Virus record (IMG/VR): IMGVR_UViG_3300021400_002728
Coordinates: 229,154 to 293,153 of that record
DNA: 64,000 bases
Origin: a virus
Taxonomy: Duplodnaviria > Heunggongvirae > Uroviricota > Caudoviricetes
Direction: 5' to 3' (one strand)
In this document: positions 1-54,308 of the stretch, one piece after another
Layout of the letters: every line of letters begins with the position of its first letter
Numbering within the stretch: the first letter of the stretch is position 1
The notes under the pieces: model-generated
Told to the model about the DNA's origin: nothing
The model's database searches: none
The model's input: only the letters and a program-made list of their open reading frames with translations
Program-made: the position numbers and the translations under genes

Positions 1-1223
1 TGATGTGGTAACTTATCTAAATACTTGTATCTGTTTATGAATAGCTCACCTAATACCAATGGATTATCAAGCATTTCAATTTCTCTTTTAAAATACTCAT
101 TCCAGTTAGCAAGTTTAGCTATTTGAGTCACATTCTTAATTTTGTCTGGAAGTGTGTCATGTTCAGAAAAGTCTCTGTTAAATATAAACATAAACTCTTC
201 TTCTGACCAACATACTAGATAATTAAGATTGTTTTGCTGAGCAGTCTCTAACTTCTTTAAGTCTGATTCAGTCCATACATGAATAGCTATGTCAAAAAAT
301 TTAGTATGCTTTGCTTTCCATTCTTCTAAAACTTTAATATCTTCTGAATTATTAGAATCAAAGAAATGACCACCATGTGTCCAAAAGAAATTACATTCTA
401 CATATAAATCTAACTCAGGCACATACATATCACATTCAAATGGATAAACATCTGAAGTATAATGATGTACAGCATTAGGAAATATAGACTGTAATAAATC
501 ATAACATTTATCTTCTGACTGAGATTTTCCATAGGTTCCATGCTCATGTAGAGTTCTTCTACGTTTAACCTTAAATTCTTCAGAACCTAAATATTGTCTA
601 CTTTTGTTAGACTTCCCATAATTATCATAGCCATATCTGGACAGCATTGTAGATTTACCTTTTTCTCTAACTTCCTTAGATTTCATAGGGTTATCTACAC
701 CATAATGCTCCATATATGATTGTTTCTTCTTTTCAAGAACTTCTGAGGAAGCATAAACATTATCTACTCCATAACGTTCTTGAACTGTTTGCTTACACTT
801 TTCTCTATTAGTAAAAGTAGAGTTGCCATATCGCTTTTCTTTAGTAGCAGCAATTTTCTTAGCTGTTTCTGAACTAGCCATTCCAACTCCACCATGATTT
901 TCAATAATAGTTTGTTTAATTTTCTGTTTTACTTCATCTGCTTGAAATGGATTTTCTACTCCATACTTTTCTAAATTAGTCTGTCTAGCTTTCTTTAGTC
1001 TAGACTTAGCATTTGCAGAATTTTTTTCTGACATTATTTTAGCTCTACATTTTTTACAACGTCCTCTTTGTTGATAAAGTTTACTTGGTAATATTTCAAA
1101 ATCACCATGTTCTTTACAAGTAACAATAATAGGAGTTGTATAAGATTTCCAATCTATATTAGAAAAATCATACTCTGGAAATAACTTTTCACATTTTTCT
1201 AAAAATTGTTCCTTTGTAATCAT
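1..1223 (-). CDS. Homing-endonuclease-like protein, partial (runs off window start)
   Basis: Absent from the ORF track. Manual translation from ATG 1223 (SD GAAGGAG) gives MITKEQFLEKCEKLFPEYDFS...CKEHGDF...RCKKC, KYGVEN-type repeats and the nuclease-like motif YPFECDMYVPELDLYVECNFFWTHGG, which is shared with 36975..38009. Confidence 0.8.
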   Translation of the reverse strand, partial: MITKEQFLEKCEKLFPEYDFSNIDWKSYTTPIIVTCKEHGDFEILPSKLYQQRGRCKKCRAKIMSEKNSANAKSRLKKARQTNLEKYGVENPFQADEVKQKIKQTIIENHGGVGMASSETAKKIAATKEKRYGNSTFTNREKCKQTVQERYGVDNVYASSEVLEKKKQSYMEHYGVDNPMKSKEVREKGKSTMLSRYGYDNYGKSNKSRQYLGSEEFKVKRRRTLHEHGTYGKSQSEDKCYDLLQSIFPNAVHHYTSDVYPFECDMYVPELDLYVECNFFWTHGGHFFDSNNSEDIKVLEEWKAKHTKFFDIAIHVWTESDLKKLETAQQNNLNYLVCWSEEEFMFIFNRDFSEHDTLPDKIKNVTQIAKLANWNEYFKREIEMLDNPLVLGELFINRYKYLDKLPH

Positions 1224-1312
1224 TTTTATTTCTCCTTCATAGAAATATAATAAGCAGCTTAGTGATGAAGGCACTATTACTCAAAGGCTCATGACTTCCT
1301 TTGCTCCCTGCA
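1224..1312 (-). promoter_or_regulatory. Structured leader RNA, copy A (three-way junction plus kissing loop on SD hairpin)
   Basis: Stems AAAGG/CCUUU, UAGUG/CACUA and UAUUUCU/AGAAAUA. Loop CCUUCAU is complementary to SD loop AUGAAGG. Covaries with copy B. Confidence 0.75.
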
Positions 1313-1320
1313 TTATTAAC

Positions 1321-2164
1321 TTAATTGTAGAGATACTCGTATATCTCCAATGCAGTCATTTCTTTTTCTTCGCCGGCTACACGAACTTTAATTTTTTCGT
1401 CTTTATCAAACTCACGACCGGTAATCCAAATTTTACCAGTCCAGTCTGTGGGCTTATAGTCTGCGACGTCATTCAAACCAATTTTCTGCATCTTCTTATT
1501 ACGAGAATACATAACTGAACGTCCAATTCTTAAAATCTCTGCAGCCTCTTGAACAGAGTTAGCAACGGCAACTACACCATTCATTCCCTTAAAAGGATAA
1601 ACATTATTAGACTATATCATATTCTCTAATTAGAGAACCCTACCACTTCGATTTAATAGACTGATATTAGACTAATCTCATCTAAATGCTAACCATATTG
1701 GCTCTACTCTACTTACTTCGTGCAAATGCCTTATTTTCATACCGTATTTCAGGTCCTATAGCTTTCGATAGTCGTTGAACCCGTCTCTGTTACCAAGACT
1801 TGGCTGCTGATTTTCCATTCTTATAACCCTTAGGATTTAACCATAGGTCATCCAAATTATTTTTTCTGCTTTCGCTGCATATCACGTTTAGTATTTCTCT
1901 TACGTTGTAGCTAATTTGGCATTAGGTTCGTATTCATTATAAGAATACTGTTCCAGCAATTCAATAGGGAATTTTTCACGCATGTCACCATACGCGGGAG
2001 CTTCATCCTTTAAAAACGCACTCCGTTTGCTTTATGTCTACAAGCGCAACCGATATTTTATTATTATGTTCGATTCTTTAGGCTTTCGCCTAAATACAAT
2101 GGAATATGACATTCCTCAAAGTGACACTATTGTGCGAAATGAGTCCTCGTTTAGCTGTCTCCAT
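1321..2164 (-). CDS. Fragment of FtsK/HerA-like ATPase paralog A: mini IntC + bypass element + group I intron; coding segments 2164-2093, 2071-2020, 1601-1321 (~134 aa)
   Basis: SD AAGGAGGTG precedes METAKRGLISHN|SVTLRNVIFHCI[gap]EHNNKISVALVDIKQTEF/YPFKGMNGVVAVANSV. This aligns without gaps to SVCEQSIVGHVSRYSDRFQLVGVDCKRVEFNLLRGVKGVKGVALDV of gene B. Confidence 0.8.
1602..2019 (-). ncRNA. Group I intron in ATPase gene A (418 nt, no ORF)
   Basis: Core motifs GAAUUGCUGGAA, AAUCAGCAGCC, GUUCAACGACUA and UGAUAUAGUCU. P1 is GGAGU|...GCUCC with a U-G pair, P10 is AAAGGAU/AUCCUUU, and the intron ends in G. Removal restores ...QTEFYPFKG. Confidence 0.9.
2072..2095 (-). other. Putative programmed translational bypass element (take-off AUU, UAG, hairpin, landing AUC)
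   Basis: ATT TAG GCG AAA GCC TAA AGA ATC, with hairpin UUUAGGC-GAAA-GCCUAAA. Removing 21 nt restores collinearity with the paralog. Confidence 0.7.
2129..2164 (-). other. Mini split-intein C fragment (12 aa, METAKRGLISHN, +1 Ser)
   Basis: Has its own SD and ATG inside the 3' end of the upstream endonuclease gene. Ends His-Asn followed by the Ser equivalent to the Walker A GK-S serine. Confidence 0.8.
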
Positions 2165-3257
2165 TGTAATCATCACCTCCTTTTATAAACTGTTTAGTTT
2201 GAGCTATATTTTTACATTTTCTACAACAGTACATTTGATAACCTCTAGTGAAGTTAATATACTTAGTAGGTTTATTACAAACTAAACATTTCCCTTCATT
2301 ATTAGATTTTATATATGTATCATAATATTCTTTGCAAGTAATCTGTTCATTAAATCTAATATGTGCAGACAGATAATTACCATTTTGAAAAGTCTGATTA
2401 CATATTAGACATGTCATTGGATTATTTTTTATTTTAGGTACATATACAATAGTTCTTGGTTTATCATACTTAAATTTTTTATACCAATATTTATCTTTAT
2501 ACTTCTCTTCACAATACTCTAAATATTGCTTAATATCACTATATGACCATACTATAATGTTGTTTGTATCAATGCATTTTTGTTTATCAGAGTCTTTTAA
2601 TGTGCCATCTGAATTTAGATATTGATTACCTTTAACTTCTATAATATCAGCATTTATTTTAAAGTCAGGAAAATATTTATGTGTAATATTATTTGAGTCA
2701 GTATAAGTCAATATGATAGGTAAACGTTCTATAGGTATATTATGATCTTTATGCCAAATATATACGGCAACTTCCCAAGATGAATCAAATAATTGATTAT
2801 CATAACTATAATATTTTCTAGACTGTTGGATATTTTTGTCTTGCATTGGATGTTCAACACCATATTTAGCTAAACTGTTCTTCTTATGTTCAACCTTAAA
2901 ATAATCAGTTTTGAATATTTCATCTTGTCCATATTTAGCTTTTATAGTTTTCCTAATCTTAGATCTAACTTCTTTAGAACTTAATACACTTTCTACACCA
3001 TATCTTTCTAGATTAGTGTCTTTATGTTTCTGTTTACATTGTTCTGTATTATGAGAACATCGTAAGCAATATTCAAAATATCCATATATAACATTTTTGA
3101 ACTTAGTAGGTTTTCCGCAGGTTTTACAAAATCCATCATTGGTTTTATGTAAATAAGTATCATAGTATTGTTTAGTTTCTATTTTATGTGCTTGCTTAAT
3201 ATGTCCTCCAAATCCAATATTAGATTCAAATTCTTTTCCACAAATAAGACATTTCAT
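2151..3257 (-). CDS. Free-standing homing-endonuclease-like protein (Zn-finger modules, YGVE repeats, PD-(D/E)XK domain)
   Basis: CLICG...H...H and CxxCGKPT modules at both ends; nuclease motif DSSWE...YFPDFKI...IIEVKG. Confidence 0.8.
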   Translation of the reverse strand: MKCLICGKEFESNIGFGGHIKQAHKIETKQYYDTYLHKTNDGFCKTCGKPTKFKNVIYGYFEYCLRCSHNTEQCKQKHKDTNLERYGVESVLSSKEVRSKIRKTIKAKYGQDEIFKTDYFKVEHKKNSLAKYGVEHPMQDKNIQQSRKYYSYDNQLFDSSWEVAVYIWHKDHNIPIERLPIILTYTDSNNITHKYFPDFKINADIIEVKGNQYLNSDGTLKDSDKQKCIDTNNIIVWSYSDIKQYLEYCEEKYKDKYWYKKFKYDKPRTIVYVPKIKNNPMTCLICNQTFQNGNYLSAHIRFNEQITCKEYYDTYIKSNNEGKCLVCNKPTKYINFTRGYQMYCCRKCKNIAQTKQFIKGGDDYNGDS

Positions 3258-3344
3258 GCTATTTCTCCTTAATAGAAATATAATAAAGCAGCTTGATGAT
3301 TAAGGCATCATTATCTCTTTGGTTAGCTAGACCAAAGCTACCTG
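3258..3344 (-). promoter_or_regulatory. Structured leader RNA, copy B
   Basis: Stems AGGUAGC/GCUGCUU, UUUGGU/ACCAAA, UGAUG/CAUCA and UAUUUCU/AGAAAUA. Loop CCUUAAU is complementary to SD loop AUUAAGG. Confidence 0.75.
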
Positions 3345-3360
3345 TTATATTATTAAATAG
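3345..3360 (-). promoter_or_regulatory. Recurrent motif CTATTTAATAATATAA (putative phage promoter)
   Basis: Identical 16-mer at 40568..40583, also upstream of an endonuclease-IntC unit. Variants occur at about 6161, 16016, 18426, 27931 and 47203. Confidence 0.5.
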
Positions 3361-3368
3361 CCTATATG

Positions 3369-3400
3369 AAAAAGAGACATACCAAGCTTGATATGTCTCC
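3369..3400 (-). terminator. Intrinsic terminator
   Basis: GAGACAUA/UAUGUCUC stem followed by a U tract after 3409..3744. Confidence 0.7.
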
Positions 3401-3408
3401 TTTAAATG

Positions 3409-35230: not shown

Positions 35231-38200
35231 TTACTGTGGATTCTTAGGTTTTAACTTAATAGTTGTCTTAGGCGCAGGTGCCATAGGCTGATCTGCAGTC
35301 GTTTTATCAATATTAAGCTTAATAACCGGTTTCTGACCTGGAATCTGATTTAATGCTGCTCCAATTCTCTCTCTATTTGAAGGTTGACCAAAATTAGGTT
35401 GAGTAGGTCCAGTAGGAGCACCAAAATTAGGTTGAGCTGGTACAGTAGGTGGTGCAGGTGGAGTTTCAGTCTTAGGTGCAGATCCTCCAAATAAACTAGT
35501 TAAATCATCCATTGATACCGCAGGTGAATCTGCTTCAACCTTAGGTTTATCGTCTTTAGGCTCATCTTTAGACTTCTTACCACCAAACTTAAATGTTACT
35601 GGTTCTTCATCTTCGTCTTCATCATCTTCAAACGTATCTTCTTTCTTAGGCGGAGCTTCTTTCTTAGGTGCGTCATCTTTAAAGAGTTCATCTTCATCAA
35701 GATCTTCATCCTCTTCAAACTCATCCTCTTCTTCTTCGATTTCATCCTCTTCCTCTTCAGGTTCCTCACCAATCTTATGCTGAGGTACCCAACCAGTATT
35801 TAACTCGTCGAAGTTTTTACCACGTCTCTTACATAACTCTACAAACACAGGATTATTGTAAGAAAGCTTCTGATCTTCATCAAACTCCCAGTCCGTTATA
35901 TTGGACATTCTTTTACTTTCATAAAAGTCTAGACTATATCATCATTATATATACTATTACCATATATATAACACCTACCACTTCAATTTAATAGACTTAC
36001 TTTAGACTAATCTCATCTAAATGCTAACCATGTTGGCTTTACTCTACTCATTTACTCTTTATAGTATTTAACTATAAATACACTTTCGATAGTCGTTGAA
36101 CCCACCTCTATTCGAGGCTTGGATGCTGATTTCCCATTCTTATTACCCTTAGGTCTCGCCATTAACGACCTTAGGTCATCTCTTCAATTTTTTCTACTTT
36201 CGTCGCGTTCGCACTTAGTCGTATTTCATACTTATGCTGTAGCTTGAAGAGCTCTTAGGTACGTATCGTTATTTGATACTGTTCCAGCAATTCGATAGGT
36301 TTAAGGAGAACCACTGGGATATTTAATTCTCCGGCTGTGTATAATAGGTCTGAGTTTCAATAATCTCATTACCAGATCCAATGAAACCACGACCTTTAAT
36401 CTGAGGTTTAGCTAACTGAGAAATATCCTTCTCAAACATAAGCTGAGAAGCACCATCATCAAATCCACCAAGAAGAACTGACATCTGAATATTGTTCTTC
36501 AAGTCAGTAGAAATAGTAGAACCTGAAGCTCTCTGACATGCAAGTGCTAAGTGTACTGCAGCAGCACGACCAAGACGGGCAATAGATCCAAGAGCCTGTT
36601 TAACAATATCAACTGACTTATAATCATCAGAGGTCATCAACTCATTCAACTCGTCCGCAAGGAATAAAAGTACCTTAGGCACATAAATACCTTTCGACAT
36701 TCTTATTGAATTCTTATCAATATATGAGTTGTAACCTTTTACTTCAGGTAACTGAGGATTTCTTCCTTCCCATTTACCTTCCATCATGCCATCGTAAATT
36801 TTTTGAATAGTAGTAATAATAGGCTGACGTCCATCAGGATAAATAGCCTTCATTTTACTATAGTTTCTATCAGATTCATCAAGGTCTACCATAAGCTCGA
36901 AGATTTCATCAAACTGAACCTTCTTACCAAATACTTCAAAGTAGTTAACTTCTTTGTCTTTGATTTTATAAACATTATTGCATAGATAACCAAGTATCAA
37001 ACTCAGATTTAGTATAAAATACAAATAATTGTACTTTATTACGTTTAGCTACTTTTAACTTGTGTGTATCTCTAACTGTCCAAGTATGAATAGCATTTTC
37101 AAAATACTTAGATGTTTTAGATTTTTCTATCCACTCTGTTAACTTTTTACTATCATTTTTCTTATTGTATGGATGTAATCCATGTGTCCAATGAAAGTTA
37201 AGTTCAATATAAATATCTTTAGATGGAATGTATAAATCACATACAAAAGGATATTTAGTTGACTTATATCCGTGTTTAGCATCTGGATAAATACTTAAAA
37301 GTTGTTCATAACATAAATCTTCTGTCTTTGATACCTTAAATGAATGATTCTTCTTTTTAGTCAGATAACTTTTATGTTTAATCTCAGCTTTTTCTTTATC
37401 TGACTTCAACATATATGCATCTCTATGTTTCTGACCAATAATCTTCATTTCTTCTTCAGTTTTACTATCAAATGTAGCTTGTCTCTTTGCATAAATTGCT
37501 TTCTTTTCTTCATCAGATTTAGCATAGTATTTGTCTGAAATTTTTTGCTTTACTGATTCTACCGCAAATGGACTAGTTGTTCCATATACCTTAAGACAAG
37601 TTTCTTTATACTTTTTACTATTATTGTATGTTTCATCTCCATACTTTGCTTGGCAAGTAGATTTTCTTTTAAGAATAGATTTCTGTTTTTCATCATCTGT
37701 TCTATTTAATAAAGACTCACTCGTCTTATTTGGATTATTGTATGTAGGAGTTCCATACCTAATAATTTTAGTAGTTTTAACTGAATTAGAATGTATAGTA
37801 GATTTATTTAAGCATGATCTAGAACAATACTTATTATAACCTTTGAAAATATCCTTAAAGTTTGTAGGTTTACCGCATACTTCACATACACCTTTTCCAA
37901 AGTACATATCATAATATGTTTGTTGACTAATGTTATGCTGTTCTAAATGTTTCTTAAACAACCTATTTGAAATTGGTTGATTACATATTCTGCATATTGT
38001 TTCATTCATTCTAATTTCTCCTTAGACTATATCTTCACCCTATTACTAGGGGACTACCTTTTCGATTTAAGGGAATCTCACCCACCATATAGGCCCTACG
38101 AGTATTGCTACAAATATTCGAGATTTCCACTCTTATTTTACGATGTAGCCTCTGTAAGCTCTAGTCGTTGAACTTTTACCCTCGACTTAACTAACTTATG

Positions 38201-53090: not shown

Positions 53091-54308
53091 TTAACAACAT
53101 TCTTTATTGACTTCATATACATATCTCTCTAGCGACCAACTGCCACTATGATAAGCTAAAAGTCCAATAGGAATTTTTAATGTTCCATCCATACTTTCAA
53201 TAACTAGAAGTACATTAGTTACGATAGTTGATTCTTTTTTATTTTTCATTTTAAGTTTATCAGATCGAACATATACATTTGTAATATTAAATAGCTTTTC
53301 GTTCCAACTTGTGATATCAGGAATATTTTCAATTTTGAAATATCCTTTACGTATATTGTACGTTACAATTGCGTTGCTAAAATCAATATCAAATGTTTGA
53401 CAAACTAATTTACATGCTTCTTCTAATTCATCTTGAATATTTTTAGGTACTTTCATCAATAAGTCCTATTCTTTCTTTTAGAGTAAAAGTCCAATAATCA
53501 TTATAAGTAATACAACTGCCCATACAATAATTGTCTCTGTCATTATAACTCCTAATTATTCATTAAGTAGTTAAGCAATTCTTCATATGTATGATCTTCT
53601 TTATTAAATTTCCAGCTTGTTACAATAGAAAGATCTTCAGCTTTAAGCTTCTCTATAGATTCAACTGACGGTTCGAATTCCATAACTACTTTTATTCTAT
53701 TTCCACCACAAGTAGGAAAGTCAACTAGTCTAGTTCCAGAACTAATTGCTTTCCTACATTGAATCTTTATAAAACGTTCATATTCTTCTTTGGATAATTT
53801 CATATTACCATAACTCCCACTGAAGATCAACAAGTCTTTTATATGAACTGTTATCAAAAACCTCTTCTACAGGTTTTCTTCTTACTTTTCTTGCGGTTAA
53901 TTTCTTACAGTATTTCTGTATATTAGTGCTGTTTGCTCTTCTGAGTCTCTTAGGAATCTCAACATATTCGCCACCATAATGTCTTTTTCTATCATGAGCA
54001 GGAATAACTTTTCTTTCAGTAATAACAGGTACACGATATATCTTTTCGGTAATTTCACCATTAACATCCAAAGATTTAATAGTAATATACTTGTACTCTG
54101 TCTTTTCCTCTACCTGCTCAGGAATATGATCGATTACGATATGTCCTACATACTTACTATCCTTAACCCAGTAGCCTCTAGCATAGGAATACTCACCATT
54201 TGCTGCCTTCTTAAATCTATCCTTTTTCTTTAATGCAGTTTCTTTTCTTCTAAGACTTGCAATAAGTTTTGATTTTCTTACACCAGGAATAGTTTTTACT
54301 TTTGACAT
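53091..54308 (-). other. Hypothetical genes (53091..53459, 53552..~53784, 53805..54308)
   Basis: ORFs downstream of promoter 54337..54365. Confidence 0.6.

Follow-up and report, generated by a model that had tools for sequence, protein, structure and literature searches.

In T-even phages, the endonuclease genes I-TevI, I-TevII, I-TevIII and segB are repressed by leader hairpins that hide the ribosome-binding site (RBS), and the same holds for mobE of Aeh1 (PMC2988022). Further, hairpins in the 5’-untranslated region (5’-UTR) arrive together with free-standing GIY-YIG and Vsr-like endonucleases in so-called fractured genes (Dassa et al. 2009, PMC2677866). Here we describe a leader RNA of a different build, which precedes two homing-endonuclease genes in a 64,000-nt stretch of DNA of an uncultured tailed gut phage (the window; bases 229154-293153 of the 394,266-bp virus record IMGVR_UViG_3300021400_002728, which has direct terminal repeats). 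The window has a G+C content of about 30%, and its genes are on the minus strand. Homing endonucleases need expression that is high enough to spread and low enough to spare the phage. To our knowledge, it is largely unknown how their levels are balanced outside the T-even hairpins.

By analogy, the T-even hairpins and the 5’-UTR hairpins of fractured genes appear to be the closest described systems. Like the former, the leader described here would be a cis-acting 5’ RNA that hides the Shine-Dalgarno sequence of an endonuclease gene and keeps a toxic selfish nuclease low. The T-even elements, however, each consist of one stable hairpin that encloses a late promoter, whereas our leader combines a three-way junction with a loop-loop contact and a palindromic loop and has its promoter 5’ of the entire structure. 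The fractured-gene hairpins resemble it in that a control element travels with the endonuclease, in that the same two nuclease types are involved, in that the hairpin outlives the loss of the endonuclease (compare the relic L098 below), and in that an intein-like gene piece adjoins the cassette with the second leader of the window (cassette B). In contrast to our leader, they are simple hairpins, described with two complementary motifs and a T4-late-promoter box but with neither a junction nor a kissing or palindromic loop (PMC2677866).

By mechanism, the kissing loop of the cobalamin riboswitches seems to be the nearest relative. In these riboswitches the RBS-bearing hairpin lies downstream of the sensing domain, and its loop pairs with a loop of that domain (L5-L13). 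The leader differs from them in being far smaller and in having no cobalamin core, no match in Rfam and no known ligand.

Four covarying helices in front of endonuclease genes

An initial annotation, made from the sequence of the window, had proposed that the leaders of the two endonuclease genes (leaders A and B) differ in sequence and keep the same four helices, P1 to P4, with their loops. All helices and loops were located at the positions it had given, on the minus strand (Table 1), and the four helices were recovered when each leader was folded alone by minimum free energy. Compared to shuffled sequences, the fold energies of A and B revealed no extra stability (z +0.79 and -0.67). Therefore, the case for a structured RNA rests on the comparison of copies.

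In the genome that contains the window, scans with patterns and with a covariance model (R1, made from 15 distinct copies) revealed no leader copies other than A and B. In all, 24 copies were found, which are distributed over four complete phages of 170-467 kb, smaller contigs of viral origin and 12 contigs from metagenomes. Relatives in three other complete phages with terminal repeats, of 332 kb (L003), 467 kb (L036) and 170 kb (L075), were uncovered by pattern scans of viral contigs, and a metagenome scan retrieved 12 contigs, all 12 of which are true members. More divergent copies were obtained with model R1, namely L087:2611-2712 and the relics L003:3588-3687, L098 and L100, and scans with an unconstrained P3 loop followed by the R1 filter yielded L112, L123, L185 and L145/L175. 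Two of the 24 copies are identical contigs and three are relics without a gene; 21 were parsed. The sequences group into about nine lineages, and the counts given here exceed the number of independent events. The search for homologues with a covariance model, which the initial annotation had proposed as a check, led to further copies whose helices covary.

The same plan is found in all 21 parsed copies: P1, a joiner, P2, a joiner, P3, the dinucleotide AG, the 3’ strand of P1, a linker, P4 and the start codon. P2 and P3 sit on a three-way junction closed by P1, which has 4 bp, and P3 has 5 bp. The joining bases are near-invariant (G-K-A-G between P1 and P2, (G)AG-R-UAA between P2 and P3, and AG after P3), and about 12 junction bases are kept in this way across lineages in which most helix positions differ. 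The linker that connects P1 with P4 shows no conservation and comprises 0-14 nt, with 0-2 nt in L036, L080 and L084. P4 holds the Shine-Dalgarno sequence, and the start codon is found 3-9 nt past P4 in every gene-bearing copy.

In a MAFFT alignment of 15 distinct sequences, 96.6% of the pair cells are standard pairs, compared to 30-51% in slid controls, in which the partner columns were shifted by 1-3 positions. Changes on both sides were found in 19 of the 33 pairs, and none of 500 shuffles reached the covariation of the alignment. For 21 distinct sequences the corresponding values are 95.2%, 31-57% (slid controls), 23 of 33 pairs and 0 of 500 shuffles in an alignment that was fitted to R1 and hence is biased towards the R1 structure. 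Every helix is backed by compensatory changes in several lineages: the pairs of P1 vary as GC/AU/UA, CG/UA/AU and AU/GC; six of the seven P2 pairs changed on both sides (15-sequence alignment); in P3 100% of the cells are paired, with double changes; and in P4 all seven pairs changed on both sides (21 sequences). G-U pairs were found in the sense of the leader strand only, which argues that the constraint acts on RNA. An alternative register of P1, in which the first junction strand pairs with the bases after P3, was discarded, as its central pair does not covary.

The comparison with Rfam, also suggested by the initial annotation, revealed no matching family. At the gathering threshold, Rfam 15 gave no match in the 64-kb window. 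In permissive scans of 131 nt the best scores were those of freshwater-2 (16-18 bits, threshold 49.9) and preQ1-II (16.5, threshold 47), and both of these sub-threshold matches rest on the Shine-Dalgarno stretch. The int-alpA motif (RF02996) is likewise a small orphan structured RNA near mobile-element genes; its model, however, detected nothing at E <= 10 in four complete leader-bearing genomes (G000, G001, G003 and G004) and had no match in the permissive scans of leaders A and B. Literature searches revealed no description of the leader motif, whereby a catalogue of more than 10,000 candidate phage RNAs (PMC10690425) was not compared entry by entry. BLAST of the region and of two leaders against 50,697 GenBank phage records gave no match, and no cultured phage with the leader was found. 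In bacterial and archaeal genomes the junction pattern had at least 120 matches, and none of the 100 loci scored fits model R1. A looser 16-base pattern led to 39 loci, all of which are chance matches except the known L003 copy, and the locus search guided by single endonuclease proteins revealed one relative only, which has no leader. Based on the sequence comparisons, we consider the leader to be a real structured RNA family that is not catalogued in Rfam.

That the leader accompanies endonuclease genes, as already noticed for A and B in the initial annotation, applies to the family as a whole: in 18 of the 21 parsed copies, the start codon of such a gene follows after 3-9 nt. The downstream genes belong to at least three unrelated types, which are a DUF7487/Vsr-like zinc-finger type, a GIY-YIG type (behind L081, L123 and L145, in L081 also with NUMOD1) and a third endonuclease-like type (L085, L112 and L185), for which no Pfam match was found. 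In the genome of the window, only two of about ten endonuclease paralogues carry the leader. Since it is present on few paralogues and in front of unrelated gene types, the leader is a separable module and not part of one gene family.

Table 1. Positions of the leaders and of the features next to them in the window
Feature	Position	Strand	Basis
Leader A, whole (from the 5’ strand of P1 to the base before the start codon of endonuclease 1)	1224..1311	-	model R1, 96.6 bits
Leader A, P1 5’ strand GCAG (partner CUGC at 1254..1257)	1308..1311	-	P1 covariation
Leader A, P2 hairpin (palindrome UCAUGA in the loop at 1289..1294)	1282..1303	-	covariation, tabulated palindromes
Leader A, P3 hairpin (loop L3 CCUUCAU, anti-Shine-Dalgarno, at 1265..1271)	1260..1276	-	covariation, L3-L4 complementarity
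Leader A, P4 hairpin (loop L4 AUGAAGG at 1234..1240)	1227..1247	-	covariation
Leader A, Shine-Dalgarno AAGGAG	1232..1237	-	inside P4
Leader B, whole	3258..3345	-	model R1, 104.8 bits
Leader B, P2 hairpin (palindrome UAGCUA in the loop at 3324..3329)	3317..3337	-	covariation, tabulated palindromes
Leader B, P3 hairpin (loop L3 CCUUAAU at 3299..3305)	3294..3310	-	covariation, L3-L4 complementarity
Leader B, P4 hairpin (loop L4 AUUAAGG at 3267..3273)	3260..3280	-	covariation, L3-L4 complementarity
Leader B, Shine-Dalgarno	3265..3270	-	inside P4
Endonuclease gene 1 (start codon 1223..1221, behind leader A; runs off the window)	1..1223	-	Pfam DUF7487, E 2e-21; PHROG 3339 and 12131, ‘homing endonuclease’
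Endonuclease gene 2 (368 aa; start codon 3257..3255, behind leader B)	2151..3257	-	Pfam DUF7487, E 1e-16; PHROG 12131 and 3339
Phage promoter-like motif (15 bases), right upstream of leader B	3348..3362	-	39 copies in the 394-kb genome

Pairing of the P3 and P4 loops and a proposed brake on nuclease synthesis

The complementarity between the P3 loop and the P4 loop with its Shine-Dalgarno bases, which had been noticed in leaders A and B, was borne out by the other copies. Complementarity over the full loop or over all but one of its bases is present in 17 of 18 cognate pairs, compared to 3 of 90 non-cognate pairs. It extends over 5-7 bases and stops precisely where the loops end. The gene-bearing copies have six loop versions, each with its own matching P4 loop. 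Three of them vary at the central pair, which is C-G, A-U or U-A, and the three others are CCUUUUU/AAAAGG, CUCUCAA/UUGAGAG and UCACU/AGUGA. These divergent versions (L112, L123 and L087:2611) came from searches in which the loop sequence was not fixed. A 4-base version of the loop pair is found in the relic L100. In the gene-less relic L003:3588-3687 the two loops no longer match, and the palindrome of the P2 loop described below is lost as well. Since both hairpins, P3 and P4, covary and the complementarity does not reach beyond their loops, it corresponds to a kissing contact of intact hairpins and not to a competing long hairpin. On its own P4 is weak (-2 to -7 kcal/mol), to which the loop duplex contributes an estimated -5 to -9 kcal/mol. 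As in the T-even leaders, the Shine-Dalgarno sequence is thus predicted to be sequestered by leader RNA structure, in this case by the loop and the stem of P4.

The initial annotation had missed a promoter-like motif, GGCTATTTAATAATA, which occurs 39 times in the 394-kb genome when up to two mismatches are allowed, always on the gene strand. This motif adjoins P1 of leader B and of the L003 leader, and leader A has a degenerate version of it only. L185 harbours a perfect TTGACA-17-TATAAT promoter with a TG extension, which ends 8 nt before P1, and a TTGACA-17-TATAAT promoter was read by eye upstream of the leader in L145. No sigma-70 site was detected in front of leader A or B when the window was scanned. 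Judging from these positions, the phage very probably uses its own promoter motif at leaders A and B, and the leader most probably begins at the 5’ end of its transcript. Four metatranscriptome runs from bovine gut, available as contigs only, contained a single 151-nt piece over leader B, which has no bearing on 5’ ends, on translation or on the coverage of the remaining parts.

We favour the explanation that the leader hides the RBS by means of the P4 stem together with the P3-P4 loop contact, and that it limits nuclease synthesis in this way; we assign it a probability of about 0.6. Transcription would start a few bases 5’ of P1, and the first 60 nt or so would fold into the three-way junction of P1, P2 and P3 with its near-invariant joiners. 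The junction would serve as a scaffold that displays the P3 loop as an anti-Shine-Dalgarno sequence. The Shine-Dalgarno sequence itself straddles the loop and the 3’ arm of the weak, A-U-rich P4, with one half in each, just 5’ of the start codon. Pairing of the two loops over 5-7 bp together with the P4 stem would then hide the whole RBS, and we infer that little nuclease would be made despite an otherwise strong promoter. Such a cis-acting brake would belong to the free-standing homing-endonuclease cassette and would move with it, and limiting a toxic nuclease may benefit both the selfish gene and the phage wherever the cassette lands.

The initial annotation had interpreted the leader as a compact cis-regulatory RNA which is either riboswitch-like or autoregulatory. 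The compact structured cis element, the loop contact and the link to endonucleases are supported. The term riboswitch-like is not backed by a ligand, by an alternative fold or by the core of a known aptamer, none of which came to light. Autoregulation by the encoded protein is unlikely, because unrelated downstream proteins share a near-invariant junction and a common protein-specific operator is implausible.

Several observations weigh against the proposed brake. A plain brake needs P3 and P4 only, which leaves the junction, P1, P2 and the palindromic P2 loop unexplained and hints at an extra input. For the copies with a linker of 0-2 nt, a rough geometric estimate suggests that their loops cannot meet intramolecularly as long as P1 is closed; this would favour either pairing in trans or a switch in which P1 and the loop contact alternate. 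The loop pairing itself is imperfect in L087:362-465, which has a central U-U mismatch, and the invariance of the loops is partly by construction, as the search patterns preset most loop positions in 15 copies.

The palindromic P2 loop and alternative explanations

The initial annotation was silent on a 6-nt palindrome of the form U-N-N-N’-N’-A, which is exposed in the P2 hairpin loop of all 18 gene-bearing copies. Five versions were found (UCAUGA, UAGCUA, UAAUUA, UGAUCA and UCGCGA), of which UAAUUA is the commonest with 7 copies. The two inner pairs of the palindrome covary (AU/CG/GC/UA and AU/GC), and the central switch from AU to GC is seen in the A-like lineage (A versus L083) as well as in the D-like lineage (L036 versus L098). 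One P2 loop sequence is retained on six different P2 stems, and the two copies within one genome (G000) and within L087 differ in both palindrome and loop pair. The predicted energy of the self-duplex is -5 to -8 kcal/mol for four of the palindromes and -0.4 kcal/mol for UAAUUA. Adjacent bases cannot pair inside one loop, and therefore the simplest reading of the palindrome is pairing between two molecules.

Loops of both kinds are known from other RNAs. The dimerisation initiation site (DIS) of HIV-1 is a palindromic dimerisation loop, and RNA I and RNA II of ColE1 interact by fully paired 7-nt kissing loops. Similar to the DIS, most leader copies expose a 6-nt self-complementary sequence between flanking purines, the loop comprising about 9 nt, and similar to RNA I and RNA II, two 7-nt loops of the leader are complementary over their whole length. 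However, the known loops serve genome dimerisation or antisense control and are not part of an mRNA leader, the dimer of our leader is putative, and the commonest leader palindrome differs from the DIS in consisting of A-U pairs only.

It is conceivable, although we consider it unlikely, that two leader-bearing mRNAs would kiss via their P2 palindromes. The P4 loop of each might then be locked by the P3 loop of its partner, and repression would grow with transcript concentration. This would account for a palindrome that is universal among the gene-bearing copies and covaries at its inner pairs, for the symmetry of adjacent bases, which points to intermolecular pairing, and for the retention of the same loop sequence on six P2 stems. 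It would also fit the absence of the palindrome from the gene-less relic L003:3588-3687, the differences between the two copies in one genome (G000; L087) in palindromes and loop pairs, and the linkers of 0-2 nt, which seem too tight for an intramolecular contact. However, the duplex predicted for the commonest palindrome is very weak, the intracellular concentration of the mRNA may be too low, and only about nine independent lineages are available. We give an equally low rating to a gated switch, in which the junction would bind a small molecule or a factor shared by phages or hosts and thereby set whether the P3 loop locks the ribosome site, much as cobalamin riboswitches govern their regulatory kissing loop. 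The near-invariance of about 12 junction bases across lineages with changed helices is what one would expect in this case, the size and the layout with a three-way junction resemble those of small aptamers, and P1 and P2, which are superfluous for a plain brake, would obtain a role. Near-invariant junction bases amid covarying helices do not by themselves imply a binding pocket. Even in the permissive searches of 131 nt Rfam revealed no aptamer match, a conserved alternative pairing did not emerge, and the downstream genes are selfish nucleases, without association to a metabolic gene that would hint at a ligand.

Two further explanations are far less probable. Temporal control of the T-even type, known for I-TevI, I-TevII, I-TevIII, segB and mobE (PMC2988022), would mean that the block acts on long early read-through transcripts, while a late promoter inside the leader gives rise to a shorter, translatable mRNA. 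The A-U-rich linker of leaders A and B can indeed be read as a -10 box, but with an unconserved linker of 0-14 nt, which shrinks to 0-2 nt in L036, L080 and L084, there is no space for a conserved internal promoter. The recognisable promoters are located 5’ of P1, which places the full leader on the primary transcript, and no internal promoter that would yield a shorter, unblocked transcript is apparent from the leader sequences. We are just as sceptical about an element that acts at the DNA level, such as an operator or a boundary of a recombination or homing cassette, and about a small ribozyme that would process itself and thereby trim the 5’ end. In line with these possibilities, P2 forms an inverted repeat at about +10 to +30 of the promoter, the 3’ half is near-identical in leaders A and B despite their different genes, which suggests recombination, and three copies are situated directly behind tRNA genes, where 5’ processing would help. 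However, P2 and P4 contain G-U and U-G pairs that are specific to one strand, the arms of the helices are free to vary and retain no half-site for a protein, and no ribozyme family of Rfam matches.

It is tempting to speculate that the leader represents a new class of regulatory RNA which is dedicated to selfish nucleases and senses either its own concentration, as a homodimer, or a ligand bound at the junction. We put this forward tentatively and consider it rather improbable, though less so than any of the single alternatives above. If the homodimer existed, the P2 palindromes would kiss on a dyad and each P3 loop would lock the ribosome site of its partner. Each copy would have a private loop code, which would prevent cross-talk among the paralogous cassettes of one phage.

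Cassette surroundings and significance of the leader

Several observations were made in the surroundings of the leaders. In a related contig (L086:3-1811), endonuclease 1 extends over more than 600 codons into a weak methyltransferase-like Pfam match (UPF0020, E 0.008). The endonuclease frames that follow two leader copies, at L090:169-800 and in L123 (from about 5007 downwards), contain in-frame TAG codons at conserved positions, namely in a zinc-finger motif and in the GIY-YIG motif; their phages probably read TAG as an amino acid. The three copies behind tRNA genes (L075:1149-1328, L090:1-170 and L100:1425-1586) are located 8-13 nt past the tRNA gene 3’ end in phage tRNA arrays, and the one in L100 is a miniature relic without a gene. 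At about 37515-38150 on the minus strand of the window (G000 266668-267300), the start of another endonuclease paralogue lies inside a sequence resembling a group I intron core, with GNRA-type hairpins and a GAUAUAGUC-like stretch right before its Shine-Dalgarno sequence. This paralogue has no kissing-loop leader.

A 418-nt insertion is present at 1602-2019 (minus strand). The related contigs L086 and L003 lack it at exactly this point, and L087 has it; U is the last base of the 5’ flank and G that of the insert. Contigs from RNA libraries of two studies join position 2012 to 1599 and 2003 to 1598, as would be expected of a circularised, excised group I intron, while the group I model of Rfam did not detect the insertion at 1602-2019. 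The region 3’ of endonuclease 2 (1321-2164, minus strand) contains a gene piece that opens with an intein-like C-terminal tag (...GLISHN|S) and has in-frame stops around a hairpin with a GAAA tetraloop. Without the 418-nt insert, this piece continues in frame into the 87-codon frame 1584..1321. Its layout resembles the fractured gene of Dassa et al. 2009 (PMC2677866), and in the 467-kb phage the same intein-like piece (L098:1600-2125) is found behind a leader relic without endonuclease. After the insertion and the upstream intein-like piece had been recognised, two interpretations were dropped, namely that the 87-codon frame 1321..1584 is the remnant of a dead endonuclease and that the leader is the 5’ part of a group I intron.

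Behind about 15 copies of the promoter-like motif, at a distance of no more than some 15 nt, a conserved hairpin is found between an A-run and a T-run, the A-run coming first, for example near 53296, 40585, 27948 and 16032 (minus strand). These units could give rise to very short transcripts, or they could be promoter-stem-loop cassettes like the PeSLs of T4-type phages. Between the upstream 111-codon gene and the promoter of leader B, a hairpin with a U-run is present (3366-3403, minus strand). It looks terminator-like by eye and has a 10-nt loop, hence it was not called by the scan.

With about 90 nt, the leader is a compact and portable control module that is common to unrelated nuclease families in large uncultured phages. 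The matched pair of loop and ribosome site represents a natural programmable part for synthetic translational control. Last but not least, the leader can be used as a marker for endonuclease cassettes and their relics in metagenomes.

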